A stretch of DNA of 64,000 bases, taken from Malacoraja senta (lineage: Eukaryota). The stretch spans positions 3,968,001-4,032,000 of the forward strand of contig CM075988.1 of NCBI GenBank assembly GCA_038087875.1, in the 5' to 3' direction. Position 1 is the first letter of the stretch. Every line of letters starts with the position of its first letter. The translations under genes and the position numbers were made by a program. Below the pieces are notes generated by a model, which saw nothing but the letters and a program-made list of their open reading frames with translations, did not search any database and had not been told where the DNA came from. Positions 90 to 64,000 of this stretch are shown here, piece by piece.

Positions 90-625
90 ACATAAAGCAG
101 TGCAGCACAGGAACAGGCCCTTCGGCCCACAATGTCTGTGCTGAACATAATGCCAAGCTAAACTAATCTCATCTTCAGTCCATGGTCCACTTCAGTCCAT
201 TCCTTGCATATGCACGTGGCTATCTAAAAAACCTCTTCAATGCCACTAACATATTTTCCCTCCACCACCACACTTGGCACATGGTCCAGGCCCCCACCAG
301 CTTCAATGCCAACATGTTGCCTTGTGTATAAACTTTAAACTGTGCCCCTCTGATCTGAAAGCTATAACCCCGGGAAAGAGGTTCTGACTGTTTACCCTAT
401 CTACAGTGTGCCTTTAATAGTTGTATATGTTCCTATCAGGTCTCCCTTCAACCTCTGGCATTACAGAAAGAACAATCCAAGCCTGTCCAACCTATCCTTG
501 TAGCTAAGGTTCCCTACTCCAGGCAGCATTGTGGTAAACCTCCACGGCACCCTTTCCTAAGCCTCCACATCCTTCCTGTAATGAGGTGACCAGAACTGCA
601 GACAATCTTCCGAATGCATCTGAAT
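90..625 (-). mobile_element. CR1/HER1-type LINE 3' fragment (degraded)
   Basis: Reverse strand ends in the GGGCCGAAGGGCCTGTT 3' tail and carries decayed ORF2 C-terminal sequence; 1-45 is a further ALERVQRRFT-encoding piece. Confidence 0.75.
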
Positions 626-915: not shown

Positions 916-1402
916 TTAAGCTGCAAAACGACTTCCTGATAAGTCTGGTCACGACCCGAAACGTCGCCTATTTCCTTCGCTCCATAAATGCTGCCTCACC
1001 CGCTGAGTTTCTCCAGCATTTTTGTCTACCTCCTGATCCTTATGCTCTATGGAGTGGAGAATTCTGCTCAACGGCACCACTCAAGACATTTCCCTCCATT
1101 TTAGTCTTAATTGGTTGACTCACATCAGGAGATGACAACGTCTCATTTTAAACTCTCATGTTGAGTGAATGAGCCTCTCACTGCAGCCCCTCAGGGCCAT
1201 TGCACATGTTCTAACTTTCTATGAGTTCACTTGACATTCTAAGTATAAATAAAACAAGAACATTTATCCCTCTCCCCTTCGTGGAATAGTCTCATCCCAG
1301 GATACACGCATTCCTCTAAGGCAATTATCTCCTTCCTTTACTAAGCAGAGCAATGCAATATTTCAAGTGTCATCTCACCAAAGCCCTGTATCATTACAAC
1401 AT

Positions 1403-1615
1403 CTGTGGAATTCTCTGCCTCAGAAGGCAGTGGAGGCCAATTCTCTAGATGCTTTCAAGAGAGAGTTAGAGCTCTTAAAGATAGTGGAGTCAGGGGATAT
1501 GGTGAGAAGGCAGGAACGGGGTACTGATTGTGGATGATCAGCCATGATCACATTGAATGGCGGTGCTGGCTCGAAGGGCCCGATGGCCTACTCCTGTACC
1601 TATTGTCTATTGTCT
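1403..1615 (+). mobile_element. CR1 LINE 3' end with (TATTGTC)n tail
   Basis: TGGAATTCTCTGCC...GAAGGGCCCGATGGCCTACTCCTG then tattgtctattgtc. Confidence 0.8.
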
Positions 1616-2392
1616 GACTACTCTTAAATTGCAAGGACTCTTGGAACATGCTTTTTTTTGCTATTCTAAATGCTTGCCCTACATGCCGGATGAATGGGTC
1701 TAGTGCACAGGGACTCTGAGCAACACCAGGATCTTTTCTAAAGCAAACTAGGGGACGAGCCCTTCAATTCACTGAGGCTGACTCAGCTGGAGAGAGTCCT
1801 TCTTGTTGGAGCTGGATCCCAAGTGCAGAGGACATCATGTGCGTAGGTCTACAGGTTTCTAGCATTCTGTTGCAAGGTCCATGGCCTTCCCTTACATCTG
1901 CCTGGTCCGTGAACCCATTTAGCAATGTGACATAAAAAACACAACACTGGTGTCAGAGGTTATGGGGAGAAGGCAGGAGAATGGGGTTAGGAGGAAGAGA
2001 CAGATCAGTCATGATTGAAGGGTGGAGTAGACCTGATGGGCCGAATGGCTTAATTCTACTCCTATTTCTTATGACCTTCTGATAGACGCAAAGTGCTGGA
2101 GTAACTCAGCAGTCGAGGCAGCAACTCTACCGCTGTGCCAACCGTGCCAACCTTAAAGGTGGATGATGGGGTTGGGAGGGTGGGCGGTTTGTGAGGTGGT
2201 GCGCCTGTTCTCCAGCACATGCAGGTTCCTGGGCTCTCCTGATGCACCGTCGCGAGGTTCTGAATACCATGCCTTGTCCTCCTTCTCCACTTTGAACCGT
2301 AATGGCCCACAGAATCCCTAGTGTCAGGGGAAGCACATCCTTCAATCTTTTCCTCTGACCTGGCCACTGGTAGCCAGTTCCAGCAGGTAGAG

Positions 2393-2722
2393 TTTTAGTT
2401 TAGTTTAGTTTAGTTTAGTTTAGTTTGGAGATACAGTGTGGAAACAGGCCCTTCGGCCCACCGAGTCCACACCGACCAGCGATCCCTGCACATCAACACT
2501 ACCCTACACACACTTGGGACAATTGTTTTTGCGCTTACACCAAGTATACAAACCCAAGCCAATTAACCTACAAACCTGTAAGTCTTTGGAGTGTGGGAGG
2601 AAACCGAATATCTTGGAGAAAACTCACAAAAGTACAAAATCCATAAAGACATCGCCGGTAGTCGGGATCAAACCCGGTGTAAGCGCTGTAAGGCAGCAAC
2701 TCTAACGCTGCACCACCGTGTT
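2393..2722 (-). mobile_element. HE1 SINE, near full length, (CTAAA)n tail
   Basis: tttag repeats 2394-2425, tail/core/head motifs on the reverse strand. Confidence 0.9.
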
Positions 2723-3801
2723 GTCCTCATACTGGGATGAATGCAAGATGAGCCATAACTAGAATAGACTGGTGATGGGTTGTGTAGGCTATGGACTTGG
2801 CGTATCTTTATAGGACAGTGAATGTTGATATGTTCATAAATGATTGGAGCAGAATTAGGCCATTCGGCCCATCAAGTCTCCTCTGCAATTCAATCATGGC
2901 TGATCTATCTCTCCCTCATATCCCCATTCTCCTGCCTTCACCCCTGACACTCGTACTAATCAAGAATCTATCCATCTCTGACTGTGTTCCCAGTAAAGGA
3001 CCAAACAGCTTGTTTCAGGCATGAAATCAGTGCCCAGCAGTTCGAAGAAGGGCCCCAATCCAAAACGTCACCCATCCATGTTCTTCATGGATTCTGTTTG
3101 ACCTGCTGAGTTACTCCAGCACTTTGTGCCTTTTTCTTTACCGAATCTGCGCCCGTGTGCCCCCTAAAGCTTCTAAAGCAGAAGGGCATCACCAACCCCA
3201 GTAACACCCACCCATACAACCCACCCACCCACCCACCCACTCATCACTAACCTCAGCAACAGCCACCCATACATGACTGCCAACAACATTCCACAAGCAT
3301 GACTGTGGAGCCGGGAGCTCCCGGTGAAACAGTCTCATCCACCCCTCCAAGTTCCAGGCTGAATTTAGCAAACTGCACGATCTGTGCAGAATGTCAGTGC
3401 ATACAACATCAAATCCAAATGCACCATGCTCAAAATACATAGACCTACCCGCTCGAATTTCTGGGCTATCCCTTAGGCTTTCTATAATTGTTGACAACAT
3501 TGTAAATGTCTTTATATCTAATGCATCCTTGTGCTGTGATGGGGGGTGAGCCGTGAACCGTCCTTGGTACATTCTCTCTCTAATAATCCCTAGGAGGCGC
3601 CAGGGGTTTAAGAACACATCTCAATCCGAAAATCTACAATCCATAGTGAAACACAATGTGCTGGAGTAACTCAGCGGGTCAGGCAGCATCACTGAAGAAA
3701 AAGGATGGGTGATGTTTTCAGACTGAAGAAGGGTTCCGACCTGAAACATTACCCATATTCTTTCTCCAGAGATGCTGCCTGATCTGCTGAGTTACTCCAG
3801 C

Positions 3802-3946
3802 AGATGCAGTATAATGTGGATAAATGTGAGGTTATCCGCTTTGGCGGCAAGAACGAGGAGGCAGATTATTATCTCAATGGTGTCAGATTAGGAAAAAGGG
3901 AAGTGCAACGAGACCTGGGTGTCCTTGTACACCAGTCACTGAAAGT
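3802..3946 (+). mobile_element. CR1 ORF2 (RT C-terminal) fragment
   Basis: Translates QMQYNVDKCEVIRFGGKNEEADYYLNGVRLGKREVQRDLGVLVHQSLKV, typical CR1 ORF2. Confidence 0.85.
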
Positions 3947-4748
3947 AAAAAGCAGGGCCTCATTCTGACAATCGAGGAAGTCCATGACAGATAAGTCAGT
4001 GTGGGAATGGGAGGGGGAGTTGAAGTATTTATTTAGCAAGCAGACTGAGCGGAGGTGTTCAGCGAAATGATTGAATGGGAATGGGAGTTAAAATAGCAAC
4101 CTAGTGATCCAGCAGGCCTTGGCGGACCGAACGCAAGCCTTTGGTGAAACAGTTACCTAGTTCATGCTTGGACTCACATTCTGTCCAGTACGATCATATC
4201 TTCCCTGACACATGGTGACCAGAATGTACTCACTACGCAAGTGTGTAGGAGGGAACTGCAGATGCTGGCTTACTCGGAAGATAGACACAAAATGCTGGAG
4301 TAACTCAGCGGGACAGGCAGCATCTTTGGAGAGAAGGAATGGGTGACGTTTCGGGTCGAGACCCTTCTTCGGAGCCTGAAGTAGTCCATGAATTGTGTGG
4401 TACACAATATCCATCAATTATCAATCAATATCAATCAATTATCAATCAATATCAGTTTTATTCGTCACTTGCACATAAAGTGCAAGTGAAATGAATTTGC
4501 CAGCAGCGGTACAATGAAAAAGAACACACAAAAACACAATAATTTTTTTTAACACAAACATCCACAGCTCAGACGTAACCACTTGCTGATGGCTTCTGTC
4601 CTTCAGCTACTAAACAAAGGATCCCTTATGTTTGTTTTAACCACCTGTTTCACCTGTCCCCGCTACATTTTCAGATCTGCAAACGTGCTGTCCAGGAATC
4701 TTCTGTTGGGTTTAGAGATTGTTTAGTGATACCGCGCGGATACAGGCC

Positions 4749-4842
4749 CGTAGCACAGGTGACCACGTAGCACAGGTGACCACGTAGCACAGGTGACCAC
4801 ATAGCACAGGTGACCACGTAGCACAGGTGACCACCTAGCACA
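4749..4842. repeat. 17-bp tandem repeat (CGTAGCACAGGTGACCA) x ~5.5
   Basis: Directly visible head-to-tail copies. Confidence 0.95.
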
Positions 4843-17340: not shown

Positions 17341-17499
17341 AAACTCATTGGGTCATTAACATCTGTGGGGGAAAAGGGATATTTGATGTTTTGAGTCGAG
17401 ACCCGCCATAAGGCCACCCAAGTGTAAAGGTTTTGATGGACACAAAATGCTGGAGTGACTCAGCGGGACAGGCAGCATCTCTGGAGAGAAGGAATGGGT

Positions 17500-17527
17500 G
17501 ACGTTTCAGGTCGAGACCCTTCTTCAG
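17500..17527 (-). ncRNA. Minimal hammerhead ribozyme core in Penelope pLTR
   Basis: Reverse complement CTGAAGA A GGGT CTCG ACCT GAAA CG TC. Confidence 0.55.
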
Positions 17528-18492
17528 ACTCACTCAGGGTTTTGATGTTCAGGTGGTGGCTGCTACAATGAATGGTCATGTACCTTACTAGATGGTTGGA
17601 TAAAGGCCAGGGATGAAAATACAAAAAGTGTGAGACAAGGAGATAAGGTGTAGAATATTTTGCCAGTAGAAGGAATATAGGTGGAAGGGATGGAGGGAAG
17701 GGGAAAGAGAGAGATTGGTGCACACCCAGATGGGACACAGGGAAGAAAGGTGGGAGGGGGGGGCAGGAATGGAAAGGGAATGGATGGGTTGTTTACCTAA
17801 GATTGGAGGATTCAATGTTCATACCATTGGGGTGCAAGCGAGCAAGTGGAATATGAGGTGCTGTTCCTCCTGGTTGTTGTGTGGGATCACTCTGCCAATG
17901 GAGGAGACCCAGGGCAGAAAGGTCAGTGTGGCAATGGGAAGGGGAGTTAAAATGCTTAGCAAGATAGACGATGACTGAACGTTATTGCCTGTGAAGAATG
18001 CTGGTTCCACTGTGGTGGATGTTTATGTTAAATTCTATTGTGTATTGTGTTCTTTTTAATTGTCTGGCTGTATGGCAACTCAAATATCACTGTACCTAAA
18101 TTGGTGCATGGGACGATAAATGTGAACTTGAACTTGAACCGGGAGATCCAGCAATGTACTTGAGGCCACATTGGTGGCACCACATGCAGTAGATGAGGTG
18201 AGAGGAGGTGCACGGGAATCTCTTTCTCACCTGGAAGGACCGCTGAGGTCCCTGGATGGAAGGGAGGGAGGAGGTACAGGAACAGGTATTACATCTCTTA
18301 CAGTTGCAGGGGAAACCTAGGGAGAAGGTGGTTTAGGTGGGAAGGGATGTGTGAACCAAGGGGCTGTGGACAGAGTTCAGATTCAGTTCATATTAGATTA
18401 GATTCATATTATATTCATATTATAATATTCATATTAGATGAGACCAGTGGAGGTCAGTGAAAATGGAAGTGAAGATCAACTGGGTTTGTTTT

Positions 18493-23332: not shown

Positions 23333-23532
23333 NNNNNNNNNNNNNNNNNNNNNNNNNNNNNNNNNNNNNNNNNNNNNNNNNNNNNNNNNNNNNNNNNNNN
23401 NNNNNNNNNNNNNNNNNNNNNNNNNNNNNNNNNNNNNNNNNNNNNNNNNNNNNNNNNNNNNNNNNNNNNNNNNNNNNNNNNNNNNNNNNNNNNNNNNNNN
23501 NNNNNNNNNNNNNNNNNNNNNNNNNNNNNNNN
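23333..23532. other. Assembly gap (200 N)
   Basis: Run of N. Confidence 1.
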
Positions 23533-23615: not shown

Positions 23616-23816
23616 GCTGGAGTCACTGATTCTACTCAATACTGGAGTCAAAATAAGTGCCTGAACAGTGGAGAGGAGTCAATGAGAATGGGGTACAACT
23701 GTAGTGATCAATAGAAGTAAAATTGCTGGGTAGATGGTTTTAAATGAGTTAAAACATGCTCAAGAAGGGCTGAAATTAAAAATAGAGAGGCTGTGTTGAA
23801 CCTGTATAGAACTCTG

Positions 23817-24040
23817 AGGTACACAAAAATGCTGGAGAAACTCAGCGGGTGCAGCAGCATCTATGGAGCGAAGGAAATAGGTAACGTTCAGGGCCGAAAC
23901 CCCTTCTTCAGACTGAAGAAGGGTTTCGGCCCGAAACGTTACCTATTTCCTTCGCTCCATAGATGCTGCTGCACCCGCTGAGTTTCTCCAGCATTTTGTG
24001 TACCTTCGATTTTCCAGCATCTGCAGTTCCTTCTTTAACA
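23817..24040. mobile_element. Fold-back Penelope pLTR mini-element with 15-bp TSD, inside an old CR1
   Basis: ~95-bp inverted arms centred at 23912; CTGTATAGAACTCTG at 23802-23816 and 24041-24055; host reads LNLYRTLVG. Confidence 0.88.
23913..23940 (+). ncRNA. Minimal hammerhead ribozyme core (UUCG-loop variant)
   Basis: CTGAAGA A GGGT TTCG GCCC GAAA CG TT. Confidence 0.6.
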
Positions 24041-24568
24041 CTGTATAGAACTCTGGTTGGACTCGTCAGAATGATGGTTCTTGTCATATAATAAACAGTA
24101 TCCAGAGATATTAAACAAACACAGAAGTTACATTTAACTGGATGAATTAAATATGCTGCAGCATTTTTTTCTGAAGAAGGGAAAATTAAGTATTTAATGA
24201 TGTGAACGTGGCGAGGATGCTTCCGTTTGTTGGGTGAGAATGTTAGCACAGACAGAAATAGAACAGAATCTTTTAGAGAGCTGAGAGAATTTTCCCAGAA
24301 GGTTACGATGTGGAACTTGCAACCAGTGGGAGAATGTCCAATGGTACTTTATTGTCACAGGTACCCAAATACAGTGAGATTCTTCTCTTGCACACACTTC
24401 AGTACAAATCTAACTATACACGAGCACAATCATACTGAAGTAGAAGAGTGAAAGAATAGTAGACTTCACAGAGGCAGTACGCAAGAGTTGCTGCTGCAAT
24501 AATGTCCTCTCATATGTGTCGGAAGGATGCTGGTTTACATCGAAGATAGACACAAAATGCTGGAGTAA

Positions 24569-28754: not shown

Positions 28755-29215
28755 CCTCGGCCTACGCGCGATCCCCCGGTTGCCAAACACTTTAACTCGC
28801 CCTCCCATTCCCACACTGACCTTTCTGTCCTGGGCCTCCTCCACAGTCAGACCTAGATTGGAGGACCGGCGTCATATTTCCCTTGGGCAGCTTACACCCC
28901 AGCGGTATGAATATTGACTTCTCTAACTTCAAGTAAGCCTTGCACCCCCTCTCTCCATCCCACCCCCACACAAGTAGTCCTACTCATTTCACTGTCCTCC
29001 TGTTTAGTTCTTCTGTCTGTAATCCTCGTTCTCACGTATCCAACACCCAGCAATCACCTCCATTTCAATGATTATCGGTGCTTTTTGCATCTCTTCCCTT
29101 CATTTCTCCTAAATACCATCTACATCCCTCGTTCCCTCTCCCCTGAATCTGAAGAAGGGTCTGGATCTGAAACGCCACCTAGTCCTCTCTCCAGAGATGC
29201 TGCCTGACCTGCTGA
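28755..29215 (+). mobile_element. Penelope-like element 3' fragment (GIY-YIG end plus pLTR)
   Basis: PVAKHFNSPSHSHTDLSVLGLLH...LGSLHPSGMNIDFSNFK, then a degenerate CTGAAGAAGGG...GAAAC. Confidence 0.85.
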
Positions 29216-29517
29216 GTTTAGTTTAGTTTAGTTTAGAGATGCAGCGCGGAAACAGCCCCTTCGGCCCGAGTCTGCACCAACCAGCGATCTCAACACATTA
29301 ATGCTATCCTACACACACTAGGGACAATTTTACACTTGTACCAATCCAATTAACCTACATACCTGTACGTCTTTGGAGTGTGGGAGGAAACCCACGCGGG
29401 TCACGGGGAGAATGTACAAACTCCGTACAGACAGCACCCGTAGTCGGGATCGAACCCGGGCTCTGGCGCTGTAAGCGCTGTAAGGCAGCAACTCTACCAC
29501 TGCGCCACCGTGCCGCC
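29216..29517 (-). mobile_element. HE1 SINE (head-duplication subfamily)
   Basis: Head contains TTACAGCGCTTACAGCGCC. Confidence 0.9.
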
Positions 29518-35544: not shown

Positions 35545-36000
35545 GTCTGAGTGAGACCAAATGCAAATTGGAGGAACAGCACCTCATGTTTCGTTTGAGC
35601 AGCTTACGACCCAGTGACATGACTTTTGATTTCTCTAACTTCAAGTAACCAAAGCATCCCCCCTCTCTCCATCCCTCCCCCGCCCAAGTCGAACGAGCTT
35701 CAAAGTCGTCTTGTTGAGTCTCATTGTCTATAATTCGTTTTCACCTCGCCCACAGCTAACAATAGCCTGTTTCCTTTATCATCGTTTATTGCATAACTTT
35801 CATTCATTTGTTCTATACCTCTCCATATCAAGGTCTATATCTTTCATTTCCCTTTTCTCTGACTCTCAGTCTGAAGAAGGGTCTCGATCCGAAACATCAC
35901 CTATACCTTTTCTCCAGAGACGTTGCCTGTCCCTCTGAGTAACTCCAGCTTTTGGTGTCTATCTTCAGTGTAAACCAGATTCTGCAGTTCCTTCCTGCAC
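35545..36000 (+). mobile_element. Penelope-like element 3' fragment
   Basis: SETKCKLEEQHLMFRLSSLRPSDMTFDFSNFK, then pLTR with CTGAAGAAGGGTCTCGATCCGAAAC. Confidence 0.85.
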
Positions 36001-37980: not shown

Positions 37981-38694
37981 TGTAGTTACGCTTAATTATG
38001 CCAGGCATAGTATAGCCTGGGACTGGATGTCATGTATCCCAACAGGCTTTGGGAAGGATGCTACTAGCTAGGGACAGACAGAGCGAAACGCTGGAGCCAG
38101 GAGAACAAGGGAGTGCAGTGAAAACGGTCACGTCATTGACATCTGGTCGAAGCAGTACTGCCTTGAGAAGATAAGGTGCCTGGAACGGACATATTGCAAA
38201 ATAACTCTATAATAGGAAAGAGATATGAACAGGCAATGCAATTAAGAACTCTCCAGCCTGATAAAGAACGAAGATGTGTTTTGTTTATTCAGCCGTTGGA
38301 CGAGTGACAACTTGAAATGATAGACTTTAACATCATGAGAGCCTTGAGTTGGAATAAAGGCTTCCTTTCGAGCATTGAAGGAAAATGAGTATAAAAGAAG
38401 GGTGGTCAAGGACATAGGGGGCGACAACGAGGGAACAACCATCGCAAGAAGAAGGGACCTGAGTTTGAAGCTCAGAGAAGACAAACCCCTGACCAACAGA
38501 GTGAACCTGGCCAATTCATTCATACGGGTAATATCTGAGACCAAGTCATGAGTTTTGTGATTTAGTTTAAGACGTGATAAGTTGAAATAGTAAAGTAAAT
38601 GAGAAGTTATTAGAAGTCAATTGTTTGCATGAATGTTTAAGTTACTCGAGCGTTAATAAAGATTTAATTTGGGTTTAGAGTCTTTTGTTCGACA
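37981..38694 (+). mobile_element. Probable solo LTR
   Basis: TGT...ACA ends, TATAAAA at 38390, AATAAA at 38655; no TSD seen. Confidence 0.5.
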
Positions 38695-38740
38695 GGTCAG
38701 GCAGCATCTCTGGAGAGAAGGAATGGGTGACGTTTCGGGA

Positions 38741-38768
38741 CTGAAGAAGGGTCTCGACCCGAAACGTC
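38741..38768 (+). ncRNA. Minimal hammerhead ribozyme core
   Basis: CTGAAGA A GGGT CTCG ACCC GAAA CG TC. Confidence 0.6.
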
Positions 38769-39261
38769 ACCCATTCCTTCTCTCCAGAGATGCTGCCTGT
38801 CCTGCTCAGCTACACAGCTTTTTGTATCTATCTTCTGGATAGAGTGGATGTGGAGAGGATGTTTCCACTAGTGGGAGGTTCTAGGACCAGAGCTCACCGC
38901 CTCAGTGTTAAAATAACAATGAAGGATGGCAATGACACCTCAGATAATATCTTTCAGAGAAAGCATCAAAGAAGGGATCAAAGAACGATCTGTTGGAGGA
39001 ACTCAACAGGTGAAGCAGCATCTGTGGAGGGGAATGGACAGTCAATGTCTTGGGTTGAAATTTTCACCAAATCTCAAACTGTCAACTTACCATTTCCCTC
39101 CACATATGCTGCCTGACCCGGTGAGTTCCTCCAACATTGTTCTACAAGTCAAGTCAAGTCAAGTCAAGTGAGTTTATTGTCATGTGTCCCAGATAGGAGA
39201 ATGAAATTCTTGCTTTGCTTCAGCACAACAGAATATAGTAGGCATGAATACAGAACAGATC

Positions 39262-45910: not shown

Positions 45911-48040
45911 GTATTCCTGGAGAACGGATAGGATACTGGGAGAAGGCAGGAGAAAGGGGTTGAGAGGGGAAGCTGTGATCGAATAGCAGATCATTGGGCT
46001 GAATGGCCTAATTCTGCTCCGATGCCTGATGGTCTAATAATCTTAAATGACATTTCAGGTTGGGACCCTTCTTCAGTGATTATTTGTGGGGGGGGGGGGG
46101 GGGTGGAGGGAAAGATAACTGAGGGAGGGGCAGGACAGAGCTTGGCAGATAATAGGTGAACACAGGCATGGGGGGAGGGGGGGGTTGAAATGCAGATCGT
46201 GGGACAAAGGCCAGAGATGTGAAGTTGTGAAGCCAGAGGAAGGAATGTTGGCGGAAGGGGAGAGGAGAGGGAGGGAAGAAATATGTGTGAGCAGCTTACT
46301 TGAATGACTTTTAGATATCATATCTGGAGGTGGTATCTGCAGCACTGAAGTGTTTTACATGCAGGCCATGCCGCTGCAGTGGAAGAAATAGAAAAATACC
46401 GCACATGCTCAAAATCTGAAATAAAACAAGATATGCTGGAAGAACCTAACGGGCCAGACTGCATCTGATCCCCAGGATGCTAAACACATTCATTCCCCTT
46501 CCCATTCCCACACTGACCTTTCTGGCCTGGGCCTCCTCTAGAGTGAGGCCAAACGCGAATTGGAGGAACAGCACCTCATATTTCGCTTGGGCAGCTTACA
46601 CCCCAGTGGTATGAATATTAATTTCTATAACTTTAAGTAACCCTGGCATCCCCTCTCTCTCCGTCCCTTCCCCTCTCAAGTCGTACTATAACATAATAAA
46701 ATCTTGCCCAGTAATCTCTCCATGTTTGTAGCTTGTGGTCCATCTGTTATACAAATGCCTTAGATGTGGACACACAGTATCTCTCCAACATACACTACAC
46801 CATAGATCAAGTTAACTTCATTTGAACGGGGAGTTCTTAAGTTATCCATGTAATTCTGTGACAAAAGATAGACACAAAATGCTAGAGTAACTCAGTGGGT
46901 CAGACAGCATCTCTGGAGAAAAGGAACCGGTGATATAGAGAGATAAAGATCAAATCAATGAAAGAATTGCAAAAAGCCACGACGATCAAGAAAAGGTGGA
47001 GCCCACAATGGTCCATTGTTGGCTGTGGGGGTTGGAGATAACGAGATACACAGACAGCGAAACTCAACAGGACGACAGTGAAACTAATACGATGACTAGG
47101 GTGGGGAAGGGATGGAGAGAGAGGGGATGCAAGTGTTACTTGAATTTATTGAAATCAATATTCATACCACTGGGTTGCATCTATCTTCAGTTCCTTCCTC
47201 CTAATTGTGACAATATTGCTCATTATTCTGCAACTCCATTTTGGCTAGACCCAGGAATGTTCACTTCAGTGAGTTAATTTGTCCGTGGGATGAATTCCAC
47301 ACCACTCACTCAGTGACGATTATTTTTTGTGGTATGTTTCAGGCATATCAAAAATATGTTTAGTGCACTTATATTGTTCTGAAGAACATTTGTGCTGTCG
47401 TGAGCTATACTGTTCACATCAGTTATTCCTTGGAGTAAAAAATCAACAGTGGAATCAAATGAAATCAAATTTCATCACGCGTCACGGTGGCACAGCTGGT
47501 AGAGCTGCTGCCTCAATAGCACCAGAGACCCAGGTTTGATCTGGACCTTGGGTGCTGTTCATGTGGAGTTTGCACACTCTCTCTGTCACCACGCGGATTT
47601 CCTCTGGGTGCTCCAGTTTTCACCTACATCCCAAAGATGTGCAGAACATAGATACAAAAATGCTGGGGTAACTCAGCGGGACAGGCAGCATCTCTGGAGA
47701 GAAGGAATGGGTGACGTTTCGGGTTGAGACCCTTCTTCACACTGTGGTTTGGACGCCCCTATAATGTTCCCCTCGTGTGTAAAGAATGGATGAAAAAGTG
47801 GGATGAAATAGAACTCCTGTGAATGGGTGATCGATGGTGGACATGGACTCAGTGGGACCAAGGACCTGCTTCCATGTTGTGTCTCAAAATCAATAAAGTT
47901 TAGAATATAGCTCCTTCTCGCCCATCGCATGGCACACTCATCGCTCAGATGTGGGATAAATACAGAATATTCAAAGATAGACACAAAAAGCTGGAGCAAC
48001 TCAGCGGGACAGGCAGCATCCGTGGAGAGAAAGAATGGGT

Positions 48041-48068
48041 GACGTTTCGGGTCGAGACCCTTCTTCAG
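48041..48068 (-). ncRNA. Minimal hammerhead ribozyme core
   Basis: Reverse complement CTGAAGAAGGGTCTCGACCCGAAACGTC. Confidence 0.6.
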
Positions 48069-48091
48069 ACTCGACCCGAAACGTCATCCAG

Positions 48092-49189: not shown

Positions 49190-49720
49190 TTGTGCATAGG
49201 TTCACTTGCACCTCCTCCAACCTCATCTACTGGATCCGCTGTTCCAGGTGTCAACTTCTCTACATCGCCGAGACCAAGCGCAGGCTCGGCGATCGTTTCG
49301 CTGAACACCTCCGCTCAGTCCGTCTAAACCTACCTGATCTCCTGGTGGCTCAGCACTTCAATTCCCCCTCCCATTCCCACACTGACCTTTCTGTCCTGGG
49401 CCTCCTCCATTAACAGAGTGAGGCCCAGCGCAAATTGGAGGAGCAGCACCTCATATTTCATTTGGGCAGCTTACACCCCAGCGGTATGAACATTGACTTC
49501 TCTAACTTCAAGTGGCCCTTGCTTTCCCTCTCTCTCTGTCCACTCCCCCTTCACAGTTCTCCCACCAGGCCTACTGTCTCCGACTACATTTTATCTCCGT
49601 CCCAACCCCTCCCCTGACATCAGTCTGAAGAAGGGTCTCGACCTGAAACATCATCCATTCCTTCTCTCCAGAGATGCTGCTTGTCCCGCTGAGTTACTGC
49701 AGCTTTTTGTGTCTACCTAT
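49190..49720 (+). mobile_element. Penelope-like element GIY-YIG endonuclease fragment plus pLTR
   Basis: FTCTSSNLIYWIRCSRCQLLYIAETKRRLGDRFAEH...HFNSPSHS...EEQHLIF.LGSLHPSGMN; pLTR follows. Confidence 0.92.
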
Positions 49721-58150: not shown

Positions 58151-59314
58151 TGGAGGAAACCGGACACTTGGAGAAAACCTATGTTGTCACGGTGGGAATG
58201 TACAAACTCAGTACAGACAGCAACTGTAGTCAGGATCGAACCTGGACTCTGGCACTGTGAGGCAGCAGCTCTACCGCTCTGCCACTGTGCGCACCCTAAG
58301 AGTCATAGTCATACAGAACAGAAACAGGCTCTTCGGCCCGAACTCGTCCATGCCGACCCAGACCTAAGCTAGTCCCATTTGCCTGGATCTCTCTAATCCC
58401 TCTACCCATGTACCTGCCCAAGTGTCTTTTAAATCTCACACTGCCTCAACTACCTCCTGTGGCAGCTCAGTCCACCCACCCGCCACCCTCTGAGTGTGTC
58501 TAATGGGCCGATGAAGGGAAGTTCAAACACTATTAGCTGCATTAACGCTGCAAATCAAACGAACATAAGGAGGTGGAGGAAGCAGATGCAATCTTGTGAA
58601 AAATAAACTTAGAACAGACATCAGGGAGAATGGGGAGATTGGGGAGAATTGGGAATCAGGGAGATATCAAAAGGTAAAATTGTGTTTGGAATAATTTGTC
58701 AAGCGGAAGCCGAAAGACCCGAGAATCAGGGCTTTGCAGGTGACGATGAACTAGGAGGCAGTGGCTCCGATTGTCTGAATGACCCGTTTTTATCCCTGAA
58801 TCTTCCCACTGAGCATTGTATTTGTTCATCGAAACTGATGTGTGTTCAAACCCTGCTGGAATGTTGTGCCTAACATGCTTCACATTAAAGAGCAAATATA
58901 GGCATTATGAACATTATAGACGTGATATACTGTAATTATTGCGAGGCATAGCACCTTGGTGACATGGATAGACCTGGAGAATGGGTTATTCTCATTTGAA
59001 CAGAGAAGGCTGAGGAAACTGGATGGAGGTATTTAAAATCATAATGTCTTTGAGGCAGAGCCAATAAACACAATAGTTAAAGGGTCGTTAACGAGAGCTA
59101 AAATATTTTTTGTGACTGTTAAAATACTCTGTGGTAATATAAGGAAAGTGCAAATTACAAATTGTTAGGCTAAGCTGATGATAGTCATATGGAAAAAGAT
59201 TAATCTGAGAGTGTGTAGGAAGGAACTGCAGATGCTGGTTTAAACCGAAGATAGACACAAAATGCTGGAGTAACCTAGCAGGAAAGTCAGCATCTCTGGA
59301 GAGACGGAATAGGT

Positions 59315-59342
59315 GACGTTTCGGGTCGAGACCCTTCTTCAG
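59315..59342 (-). ncRNA. Minimal hammerhead ribozyme core
   Basis: Reverse complement CTGAAGAAGGGTCTCGACCCGAAACGTC. Confidence 0.6.
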
Positions 59343-59409
59343 ATCAGCCTGAAAAAGATGGCTCTGGAGAGGGTCCAGAGGAGGTTGACGAGAATGATCC
59401 CTGGAGTGA

Positions 59410-59886
59410 CTGTCCATCGTTCTAGGTGTCAGCTGCTCAACATCGGTGAGACCAAGTGTAGGCTTGGCGATCGCTTCGCCCAACACCACCGCTTAGTTCG
59501 CAATAACCAACCTGATCTCCTGGTGGCTCAGCACTTCAACTCCCCCTCCCATTCCGAATCTGACCTTTCTGTCCTTGGCCTCCTGCATGGCCAGAGTGAG
59601 GCCCAGCGTAAATTGGAGGAGCAGCACCTCATACTTTGCTTGGGTAGTTTACACCCCAGCGGTATGAACATTGACCTCCAATTTCAGGTAGTCCCTGCTT
59701 TCTCCCTCTTTCCCCTCCCCTTCCCAGCTCTCCCGCAGCCCACTGTCTCCGCCTCTTCCTTTCTTCTTCCCGCGCCCCCCCACCCCACATCAGTCTGAAG
59801 AAGGGTCTCGACCCGAAACGTCGCCTATTTCCTTCGCTCCATAGATGCTGCCTCACCCGCTGAGTTTCTCCAGCATTTTCGTCTAC
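59410..59886 (+). mobile_element. Penelope-like GIY-YIG fragment plus pLTR, inserted in CR1
   Basis: SRCQLLNIGETKCRLGDRFAQH...HFNSPSHSESDLSVLGLLH..RKLEEQHLI..LGSLHPSGMNID. Confidence 0.92.
59795..59822 (+). ncRNA. Minimal hammerhead ribozyme core downstream of the GIY-YIG ORF
   Basis: CTGAAGA A GGGT CTCG ACCC GAAA CG TC, same strand as the Penelope ORF. Confidence 0.65.
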
Positions 59887-60603
59887 CAGGAATGATTGGG
59901 TTAACATATAATGATCGTTTGAGGGCACTGGGCCTGTGTTCGCTGGAGTTTAGAAGGCGGTGCTGGCTCGAAGGGCCGAATGGCCTACTCCTGCACCTAT
60001 GGTCTATTTCATTGTAAGTGAAAAGTGAAAGGCCTGAATATAGAGGATGTGGAGTGGATTTTTCCACAAGTGAAGAGAGTTTATTGTCACGTGTCCCAGA
60101 TAGGACAATAACATTCTTGCTGCAGCACAACACAATAGGTAAACACAGTACATAACGGGAGATATAGCACATAGTAGATTGTGGGAGAATCAAGGGTCAG
60201 AGGCCATAGCTGCAGAATAAAAGGAGATGAGGAGGAATTTCTTTATTCAGAGGCTGGTGTGAATCTGTGGAATTCATTGCCACAGGCCGTCCATGGATAT
60301 TTTTAAGGACAGATGGGCAGATTCTTGATTTGTACGGGTGTCAGGGGTTATGGGGGAGAAGGGAGGAGAATGGGGTTGAGAGAGAAGATCGATCAGCCAT
60401 AGTGGATATAGGATGTAGTACGTACTATGTAGAAAGTGGATTAGATGATGGGCTGAACGGCCTAATCCTGCTCCCATGACTGAAGAACATGAACTTATGA
60501 GAGCATCAGAAGAGGATCAGGTGTATGCTTGGAGGAGGGAAGCTATTACGAGATGGGTTTGCGGGAGGATGGGGAGGGAAAGTTGTATTACTGTTCACAA
60601 CTG

Positions 60604-60890
60604 GGGCGGCACAGTGATGCAGCAGGTAGAGCTGCTACCTCACAGCGCCAGAGCTCCTCAAGTCTGTCTGTGTGGAGTTTGTACGTTTACCCTGTGACCG
60701 CGTGGGCTTCCTCCGGGTGCACCGTTTCCCCCCCCCACATCCCAAAGGAGTGCGGGCTTGCAGCTTAATTGGTCTCTGTAAAATTGCCCCCTAGTGTGTA
60801 GGGAGTGGGATGAGAAGTGGGATAACACAGATGTTCGGTGTGGACTCAGTGGGCCGAAGGGCCTGTTTCCATGCTGCATCTGTAAACTAA
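60604..60890 (+). mobile_element. HE1-like SINE
   Basis: Head, core, tail. Confidence 0.82.
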
Positions 60891-60934: not shown

Positions 60935-61229
60935 GCATGGACGGCGCAGCGGTAGAGAGACCCGAGTTCGATCCTGAGTATAGGGTGTTGTTTGTATGGA
61001 GTTTGTACGTTCTCCCCATGACCAAGTGGGTCTTCTCTGAGATCTTCGCTTTCCCCCCCACACTCCAAAGACGTACAGGGTTTGTAGGTTAATTGGCTTG
61101 GTATAAATATAAATTGTCTCCAGTGTGTGTACGATTGTGTTAGTCTGCGGGGACCGATGGTAGGTGCGGACTCAGTGGGCCGAAGGGACCTGCTTCCGCA
61201 TGGTATCTCTAAACTAAACTAAACCAAAC
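60935..61229 (+). mobile_element. HE1 SINE
   Basis: B-box AGTTCGATCC, core, taaac tail. Confidence 0.85.
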
Positions 61230-61366
61230 AAGGTAGATTTAGGATGGGGTATCTTCCTGCTCGGAAACTGCACCTGAGATTTATATGAGGGGATATTTTA
61301 GGACCGACACAAAAAGCTGGAGTAACTCGGCGGGTCAGGCAGCATCTCTGGAGAAAAGGAGTGGGT

Positions 61367-61394
61367 GACGTTTCGGGTCGAGACCCTTCTTCAG
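61367..61394 (-). ncRNA. Minimal hammerhead ribozyme core
   Basis: Reverse complement CTGAAGAAGGGTCTCGACCCGAAACGTC. Confidence 0.6.
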
Positions 61395-63770: not shown

Positions 63771-64000
63771 CAGAGTGTCAAGCCTGTCTCCGTATGCCAG
63801 CTCTATTTTCAGTCCTAGAAATGCAATACTGCAGTCAGTCCTAGATTTGCAAAATGCTGGAGTAACTCAGCGGGACAGGCAGAATCTTTGGATAGAAGGA
63901 ATGGGTGACGTTTCAGATCAAGACCCTTCTTCAGACTGGAGGGTCTCGACCCATAACGTCACCCATTCCTTCTCTCCAGAGATGCTGCCTGTCCCGCTGA

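Follow-up and report, generated by a model that had tools for sequence, protein, structure and literature searches.

A minimal hammerhead ribozyme in an abundant Penelope-like element of Malacoraja senta, and genomic junctions that likely record its cleavage

A 64,000-nucleotide stretch of the Malacoraja senta genome (assembly GCA_038087875.1, contig CM075988.1, positions 3,968,001 to 4,032,000, forward strand; hereafter the window) carries, downstream of a fragment of a Penelope-like element (PLE), a motif with the core letters of a hammerhead ribozyme. The locus raises the question of whether this motif cuts RNA in the animal or is, as a preliminary description had it, either an extreme, obligately dimeric variant or a fossil. 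The function of minimal hammerheads in PLEs was called unclear in 2021 (PMC8557442), and the portions of the 2014 survey drawn on here report poor cutting in vitro and no in vivo evidence (Cervera and de la Pena, 2014; PMC4209133).

Positions in the motif are counted from C3 as 0 (window position 59795), so that H17 is +27 and the predicted cut falls before +28. The plus-strand segment 59795-59822 reads CTGAAGA-A-GGGT-CTCG-ACCC-GAAA-CG-TC, flanked by GT on the 5' side and GC on the 3' side, and the whole (59793..59824) fits the published consensus of a minimal type I hammerhead (PMC4209133). Helix I would consist of the pairs G59793-C59824 and U59794-G59823, followed by the core (59795-59801) with an extra A (59802), helix II with a CUCG loop (59803-59814) and GAA-ACGU-C (59815-59822); the predicted cleavage site lies after H17, between 59822 and 59823, where tandem junctions at other genomic loci start anew. 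Upstream on the same strand are a 5'-truncated, C-terminal GIY-YIG endonuclease fragment of a PLE (59419..59690; translation NIGETKCRLGDRFAQH...HFNSPSH), a pyrimidine-rich 3' UTR or upstream pLTR portion common to long copies (59691..59789) and an initiator-like YCAGTCT (59790..59796), which puts the likely RNA start 2-3 nt before C3. Downstream, the tail, equivalent to the start of the 5' UTR (59823..59887), stops at +92, the first of two preferred 3' ends (the other being +128). The copy interrupts what we take to be a CR1-type LINE fragment (59352-59412 and 59888-59960), and the segments 60600-60830 and 60940-61215 are presumably tRNA-like SINE copies similar to the shark/ray HE1 family.

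The motif is indeed present in dozens of copies: a profile built from natural copies finds 79 matches in the window, 36 of which cover all 13 core columns, with 10 of these fully intact, and the window has 82 occurrences of CTGANGA, where shuffled sequences have 47.8 +/- 6.9 (0 of 100 shuffles reach 82). All seven intact cores listed previously were recovered (23913, 38741 and 59795 on the plus strand; C3 at 17527, 48068, 59342 and 61394 on the minus strand), and an eighth was added at 63934 (-). The plus-strand cores at 23913 and 38741 belong to head-to-head pairs (23786..24046, of the youngest subfamily, and 38693..38852, in which U2.1 of helix I is missing). On the minus strand the cores lie in solo short copies at 17444..17530 (2-bp helix I) and 61311..61394 (no U2.1), a short copy at 47985..48071 (2-bp helix I), a separate short copy of another subfamily at 59259..59343 (1-bp helix I) and one member of a head-to-head pair at 63851..63938. 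Four GIY-YIG fragments are likewise followed by the motif on the same strand, as described: besides 59419-59887, these are 49241..49717 (81% identity over 480 nt, with pLTR, decayed hammerhead and tail), 28770..29219 and 35549..35953 (both with pLTR and decayed hammerhead). The 2-bp helix I holds for part of the set, being kept in four of the eight copies with a core and a 4-bp helix II (59795, 17527, 48068 and 63934) and absent from the other four. About 15 head-to-head pairs occur in the window, those at 23913 and 38741 among them, and would fold back on themselves if transcribed through. The pair at 23786-24046 and ~14 further palindromic pairs often meet at TCAG-W-CTGA, immediately ahead of C3, or at a GTTTCGG/CCGAAAC palindrome; an assembly gap of 200 N lies nearby (23333-23532).

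Genome-wide, the exact 32-nt pattern (core, helix II, ACGU, H17 and 2-bp helix I) occurs 32,542 times and its reversed control 0 times, and the 58-nt tail has 16,977 exact copies. Profile matches number 491 in 864 kb, including 242 in 600 kb spread over many contigs; simple extrapolation from the latter, which is not a count, gives ~0.8 million copies per genome. The GIY-YIG fragment has 81,151 first-look candidates across the genome, and its longer copies extend into the reverse transcriptase (RT). Copies agree in their 3' end, with truncation on the 5' side, and long ones encode RT, a CX4CxxC linker and GIY-YIG. In partial tandems, motif and tail continue directly into the ORF; these tandems, inverted truncated copies and an optional 30-40 bp tail match PLE traits (PMC8557442). 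The full element at L289 carries a hammerhead in both pLTRs (at 1029 and 4947, 3,918 bp apart) around an ORF (1192-4830), an uninterrupted 1,212-aa RT/GIY-YIG frame starting at +163; its RT motif is YIND, with YIDD in seven of eight other long copies checked. Protein profiles place RT and GIY-YIG in order in L289, each scoring below cut-off, and in L029 RVT_1 reaches 32 bits, above cut-off, with GIY-YIG below it (E=5e-4); a Pfam search with the 107-aa window fragment gave a single weak, unrelated match. The protein has 576 homologs, 39-54% identical, the named ones being from molluscs, cnidarians and a tick. The RT-EN linker of L289, CNRKRCNTC, fits the CX2-5CxxC of the Neptune clade, a linker also found in Nematis (PMC8557442); judged by this linker, the young, very abundant element is of Neptune type. 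Some copies are passengers of other amplifications: Penelope fragments lie in large near-identical multi-kb repeats on many small contigs (L021-L023, L049, L052-L054, L059, L060), and one palindromic, core-decayed copy sits in a larger repeat that has been amplified many times, each time with an identical flank (L305, L306, L317, L319, L323, L324, L330, L332).

The identification as a Penelope pLTR minimal type I hammerhead stands. The published minimal motif lacks helix III, carries an additional, conserved base between 9 and 10.1, and is palindromic at 15.2-16.2 (Cervera and de la Pena, 2014), and the motif described here agrees in all three respects, as well as in G10.1-C11.1, its presence in both pLTRs and the predominance of solo or opposite-strand copies. 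Helix III being absent, ACGU can pair solely between two copies, as first proposed, and it is present in all six subfamilies defined below. These same features are, however, the published definition of the type, which removes the grounds for calling the motif extreme. The CUGAAGAA...GAAACGUC core is also found in fugu, Xenopus and a snake, and 2-bp helices I in Culex, D. virilis and Oikopleura (alignment of PMC4209133). In a metagenome scan we found the same core in 102 distinct contexts among at least 120 loci, with helix I of 2 bp in 21 and of 4 bp in 44, GU/AC included; given these published and metagenomic cases, a 2-bp helix I is short, not unique. Within the range given in PMC4209133, helix I is at the short end and helix II has 4 bp with a YNCG loop; the closest form there, the Acropora Neptune motif, has a 4-bp helix II but a 3-bp helix I. 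Cartilaginous fish are absent from the table of that paper, and the 32,542 exact intact copies compare with ~9,000 descriptor hits in Xenopus, counted by different methods. A comparison with Rfam hammerhead models, suggested at the outset, gave no family at gathering score in the window, and no hammerhead family at E<=10 for 59200-60000 and part of a tandem array.

Which RNA is copied into the genome can be read from the ends of 79 young copies chosen by their tails alone. Their 3' ends cluster at +92..95 (50 copies) and +123..130 (24 copies), and on the 5' side 27 reach at least 10 nt upstream of C3, another 23 end within -6..-1, and three do so at +27/28. Many solo copies are bordered by target duplications of 10-19 bp. 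Directly 5' of the element stands a G in 13 of the 23 copies ending at -4..-2 (p=0.004), as expected if the RNA is capped and begins at the YCAGT immediately 5' of the core; we take YCAGT(CT) to be an initiator and the extra G to be a trace of the cap. An internal promoter with an initiator is known for Penelope of D. virilis (PMC2377424). Most copies pass the cut site and end just before C3, which suggests that uncleaved RNA is likely the main template. In a targeted list, 23 of 86 solo 5' ends fall at +28 against ~12.5 expected, ~8 of them microhomology products by hand count, so that the excess of solo ends at +28 is weak. At the 5' junctions of some solo copies (L211, L222, L228, L254), the first 8-20 nt (GAAGAAGG) are duplicated in short, re-primed form.

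The predicted cut site is marked instead in tandem junctions. A search anchored at +109..+141 and blind to the acceptor gave 450 matches, and among the 100 of these listed there were six short-period arrays. Four (L283-L286) have an intact hammerhead in each unit, with units of 384 bp (x13), 275 bp (x ~11), 254 bp (x3) and 260 bp (x4). The other two lack the hammerhead and have units that start at +28 (138 bp with 11 joints; 165 bp with 4 joints and a 1-nt ambiguity); among unselected junction rows, 2 of 14 cover +28, both from these hammerhead-less arrays. A tail-to-tail pattern had 57 matches in the genome, all listed, which collapse by hand, after merging arrays and evident duplicates, to ~27 loci: 12 join precisely at +28 without microhomology (11 if C5488 duplicates C18), 3 more are compatible with +28 through microhomology, and 12 join elsewhere, mostly with microhomology. 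Against 11 equal positions, 12 of 27 has a binomial p of ~1.5e-6; 10 of the 12 precise loci, however, use donor +88, so the loci are not fully independent. Counted as junction types over both donor windows, 7 of 26 fall at +28 (binomial p=0.007), and 3 of 11 do so in the second window (p=0.07). In all, ~11 distinct junctions restart at +28, in arrays of up to 11 units, and the letter at the joint (G or A) tracks the subfamily. Arrays of 61 bp have up to 8 joints, and in one array joints with and without an extra A alternate, which argues for repeated template jumping rather than one circle. The 61-nt unit (+28 to +88), for which +88 is a preferred 3' end, recurs at several unlinked loci and in two subfamilies (L363; G000:C4:32.317 Mb, C7:34.68 Mb and C18:6.03 Mb). 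Donors at ~+210 and ~+224 also join +28, through A-rich fillers, in a set selected for +27/+28 and kept outside the statistics. Contigs of public runs were viewed through 12 of 112 rows of a joint table that G28 joints enter by construction: in run X15, a possible source of this genome, +88 to G+28 is the deepest joint listed, and in run X19, which bears another organism label, donors +58 and +90 are joined to G+28, the acceptor of 3 of the 9 go-back joints listed. An AG acceptor and a GT donor were looked for at the +28 joints and neither was present; back-splicing was rejected as their origin because these splice signals are lacking.

The pattern of these joints suggests that the +28 tandem junctions are likely cDNA copies of cleaved RNA. 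We consider it probable, at roughly two chances in three, that this young, abundant Neptune-type PLE carries in its pLTR a minimal type I hammerhead that, in a minority of transcripts, cleaves itself in vivo after H17, probably as a dimer with help from protein. An alternative, appreciably less probable, is that the motif folds and is conserved without cutting; the +28 ends would then arise because RT stalls on the motif in its folded, protein-bound state, through a host nuclease, or because a pyrimidine-purine step acts as a minor transcription start. The step at +27/+28 is indeed of that kind, the main 5' ends fall before C3, and published in vitro rates of minimal motifs are low (PMC4209133). 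The predicted fold is also weak: for naked RNA, the probability of helix II is at most 0.044 and of helix I at most 0.0001, and the hammerhead is not the predicted fold, which fits a need for a partner copy and a protein. Yet the joints are precise to the single base, occur in G28 and A28 subfamilies and involve many donors, and A28 joints lack the extra G found at the -4..-2 ends. If RT stalled, it would be expected to do so at the edge of a helix, which is +25 in the predicted fold, or at +29/+30; in the young subfamily +25..+36 is predicted to be unpaired, and +28 is therefore not accounted for by such an edge. RNA-seq data filed under two other organism labels, made from poly(A), oligo-dT and single-cell libraries in which passenger copies dominate, had no pile-up of molecule ends; the reads over the short copy lie on both strands and do not inform on cleavage.

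Conservation bears on a further, improbable reading, in which the motif is a fossil carried along with the pLTR or is conserved for a role as promoter DNA or as a binding site for protein. Sorting by hand placed 218 of 267 near-full copies in six subfamilies and left out 49, with median divergences from 0 to 12.7%; the family is young, with 8 copies at a median of 0%. None of the 13 core columns but 16 of the 62 tail columns have majority letters that differ between subfamilies (p=0.03 by Fisher's test, the columns not being independent), so that the core, unchanged over subfamilies 0-13% diverged, speaks against a fossil. Five motif positions change (two letters of loop II, a helix II U-A to U-G, C/U at H17 and A/G at 1.1), four of them in columns also used to define the subfamilies; all five preserve the fold, loop II remaining YNCG, helix II 4 bp and helix I 2 bp. 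The G10.1-C11.1 pair is common to all six subfamilies, and the extra base after A9 is A in 315 of 323 copies. The CpG at H17/1.1 is CG, TG, TA or CA depending on the subfamily, whereas those at 11.1/G12 and 15.2/16.2 stay CG; a list of variable columns made without grouping agrees, CpG columns alone having a second allele above 12% in the core. The family's two-sided variation is too small for a covariance model. The proposed contrast between core and neighbouring positions is informative between subfamilies only, where the core is invariant; among single copies, neutral decay after insertion confounds it, with 20% mutation at core CpGs. Copy-level conservation was also discarded as proof of function, since the lower mismatch of the core at non-CpG A/T positions (3.9% versus 7.0%) is explicable by unresolved tail variants. 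The decay of dead copies at core CpGs would suit a fossil or DNA site, as would the good conservation of tail columns such as ATGCTG...CAGC, the success of Naiad elements that thrive without hammerheads (PMC8557442), and inserted copies with A15.1G (L318 and L331, with target duplications, and L309), which imply that short copies can form without an intact core. Against this reading, subfamily changes preserve helix I, helix II and H17, helix I has at least 2 pairs of varying letters in 90 of the 102 unrelated metagenome contexts (among at least 120 loci), and the junctions fall exactly on the cut site. The motif is neither extreme nor fossil and belongs to the published minimal type.

Cutting as a monomer, or efficiently without protein, is very improbable, since A15.1-U16.1 would have to close a 2-nt loop, published minimal-motif monomers are inactive (PMC4209133) and the hammerhead is not the predicted fold, and this analysis found no support for it. 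Of nine Xenopus dimers, eight showed no cleavage. Protein assistance for minimal motifs was suggested in 2014 (PMC4209133). Use as a dimer is likely, judging from the invariant palindrome and the literature. Helix I has no Watson-Crick pairs beyond the two adjoining the core; a putative extension through a 2x2 internal loop and 1-2 further pairs is possible. In L289 (1026-1157), the first 12 nt of the RNA are predicted to pair with +113..+127, adjoining the second RT start, and such pairing could keep the hammerhead off and mark that start.

Comparison with known systems sets these observations in context. The anole Poseidon element PAc combines protein-assisted cleavage with internal RT starts, and in the portions of that study used here hammerhead mutants had no effect on insertion and no read ends fell at the cut site (Frangieh et al., 2024; PMC11167929). 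The M. senta element resembles PAc in its two internal RT starts that give the tail, its apparently uncleaved main template and a hammerhead near the ORF start. It differs in that its cut site precedes the ATG by 135 nt, whereas that of PAc is inside the ORF, in a protein with a Neptune-type Zn linker, and in genomic junctions that mark the cut site, where PAc RNA-seq has no ends. The HDV-like ribozyme of R2 offers a parallel, its cut site being readable from genomic 5' junctions; the cut defines most R2 insertions but a small minority of those described here (PMC3774820). Like non-LTR retrozymes, the arrays L283-L286 are pLTR-derived, head-to-tail, made of 254-384 bp units and provided with an intact hammerhead in each (PMC7229834; bioRxiv 10.64898/2026.07.22.740005); retrozyme-type arrays have been reported in one chondrichthyan genome (bioRxiv 10.64898/2026.07.22.740005). 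L283-L286 contain two or more successive units that have complete type I hammerheads, a criterion for a retrozyme. In contrast to the non-LTR retrozymes as presented in PMC7229834, each array has its own junction, apparently from a single recent event, and some arrays lack the hammerhead and start at its cut site. The four arrays (G000:C1 at 28.90, 256.83, 231.19 and 363.29 Mb), near-identical and with internally deleted units, are natural dimer substrates and look like single-event retrozyme births. Our literature searches found no report of this motif in skates or sharks and none of junctions at PLE hammerhead cut sites, nor are such junctions described in the portions of PMC4209133 cited; Lunse et al. 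(RNA Biol, on dimers) and Arkhipova et al. (2017) may hold related data.

The life of such an element can be pictured as follows. The RNA would start 2-3 nt before C3, which would leave room for just a 2-bp helix I. The RT would start internally, at +92 or +128, and usually copy uncleaved RNA to its start; the many solo copies of 95-130 bp, and the inverted pairs, would result in this way, or the RT would continue into a longer copy. Two motifs (in the two pLTRs of one transcript, in neighbouring array units or in two RNAs held by protein) would pair through ACGU and then cut, and the 3' piece beginning at +28 would sometimes serve as template several times over, through template jumping or as a circle, and give rise to hammerhead-less arrays with units starting at +28. 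On balance, and with more reserve than for cleavage as such, we lean towards the wider reading that a minimal Penelope hammerhead cuts in the vertebrate germ line and has left a record in the genome: a ribozyme with a 2-bp helix I, unable to fold alone, would be switched on by dimerisation on the element's protein in a minority of transcripts, RNAs starting at +28 would be circularised or template-jumped into arrays, and retrozyme arrays would be born one insertion at a time.

What is likely new here is the use of genomic junctions as an indirect in vivo sign of cleavage. In a young family, with exact copies numbering in the tens of thousands, there are enough rare events to read RNA ends off the DNA. 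Should the +28 junctions be cleavage products, the hammerhead would be active in the germ line and its cleavage would be a side route, not the step that makes most copies, and the same junction test would be applicable to any genome with Penelope elements.
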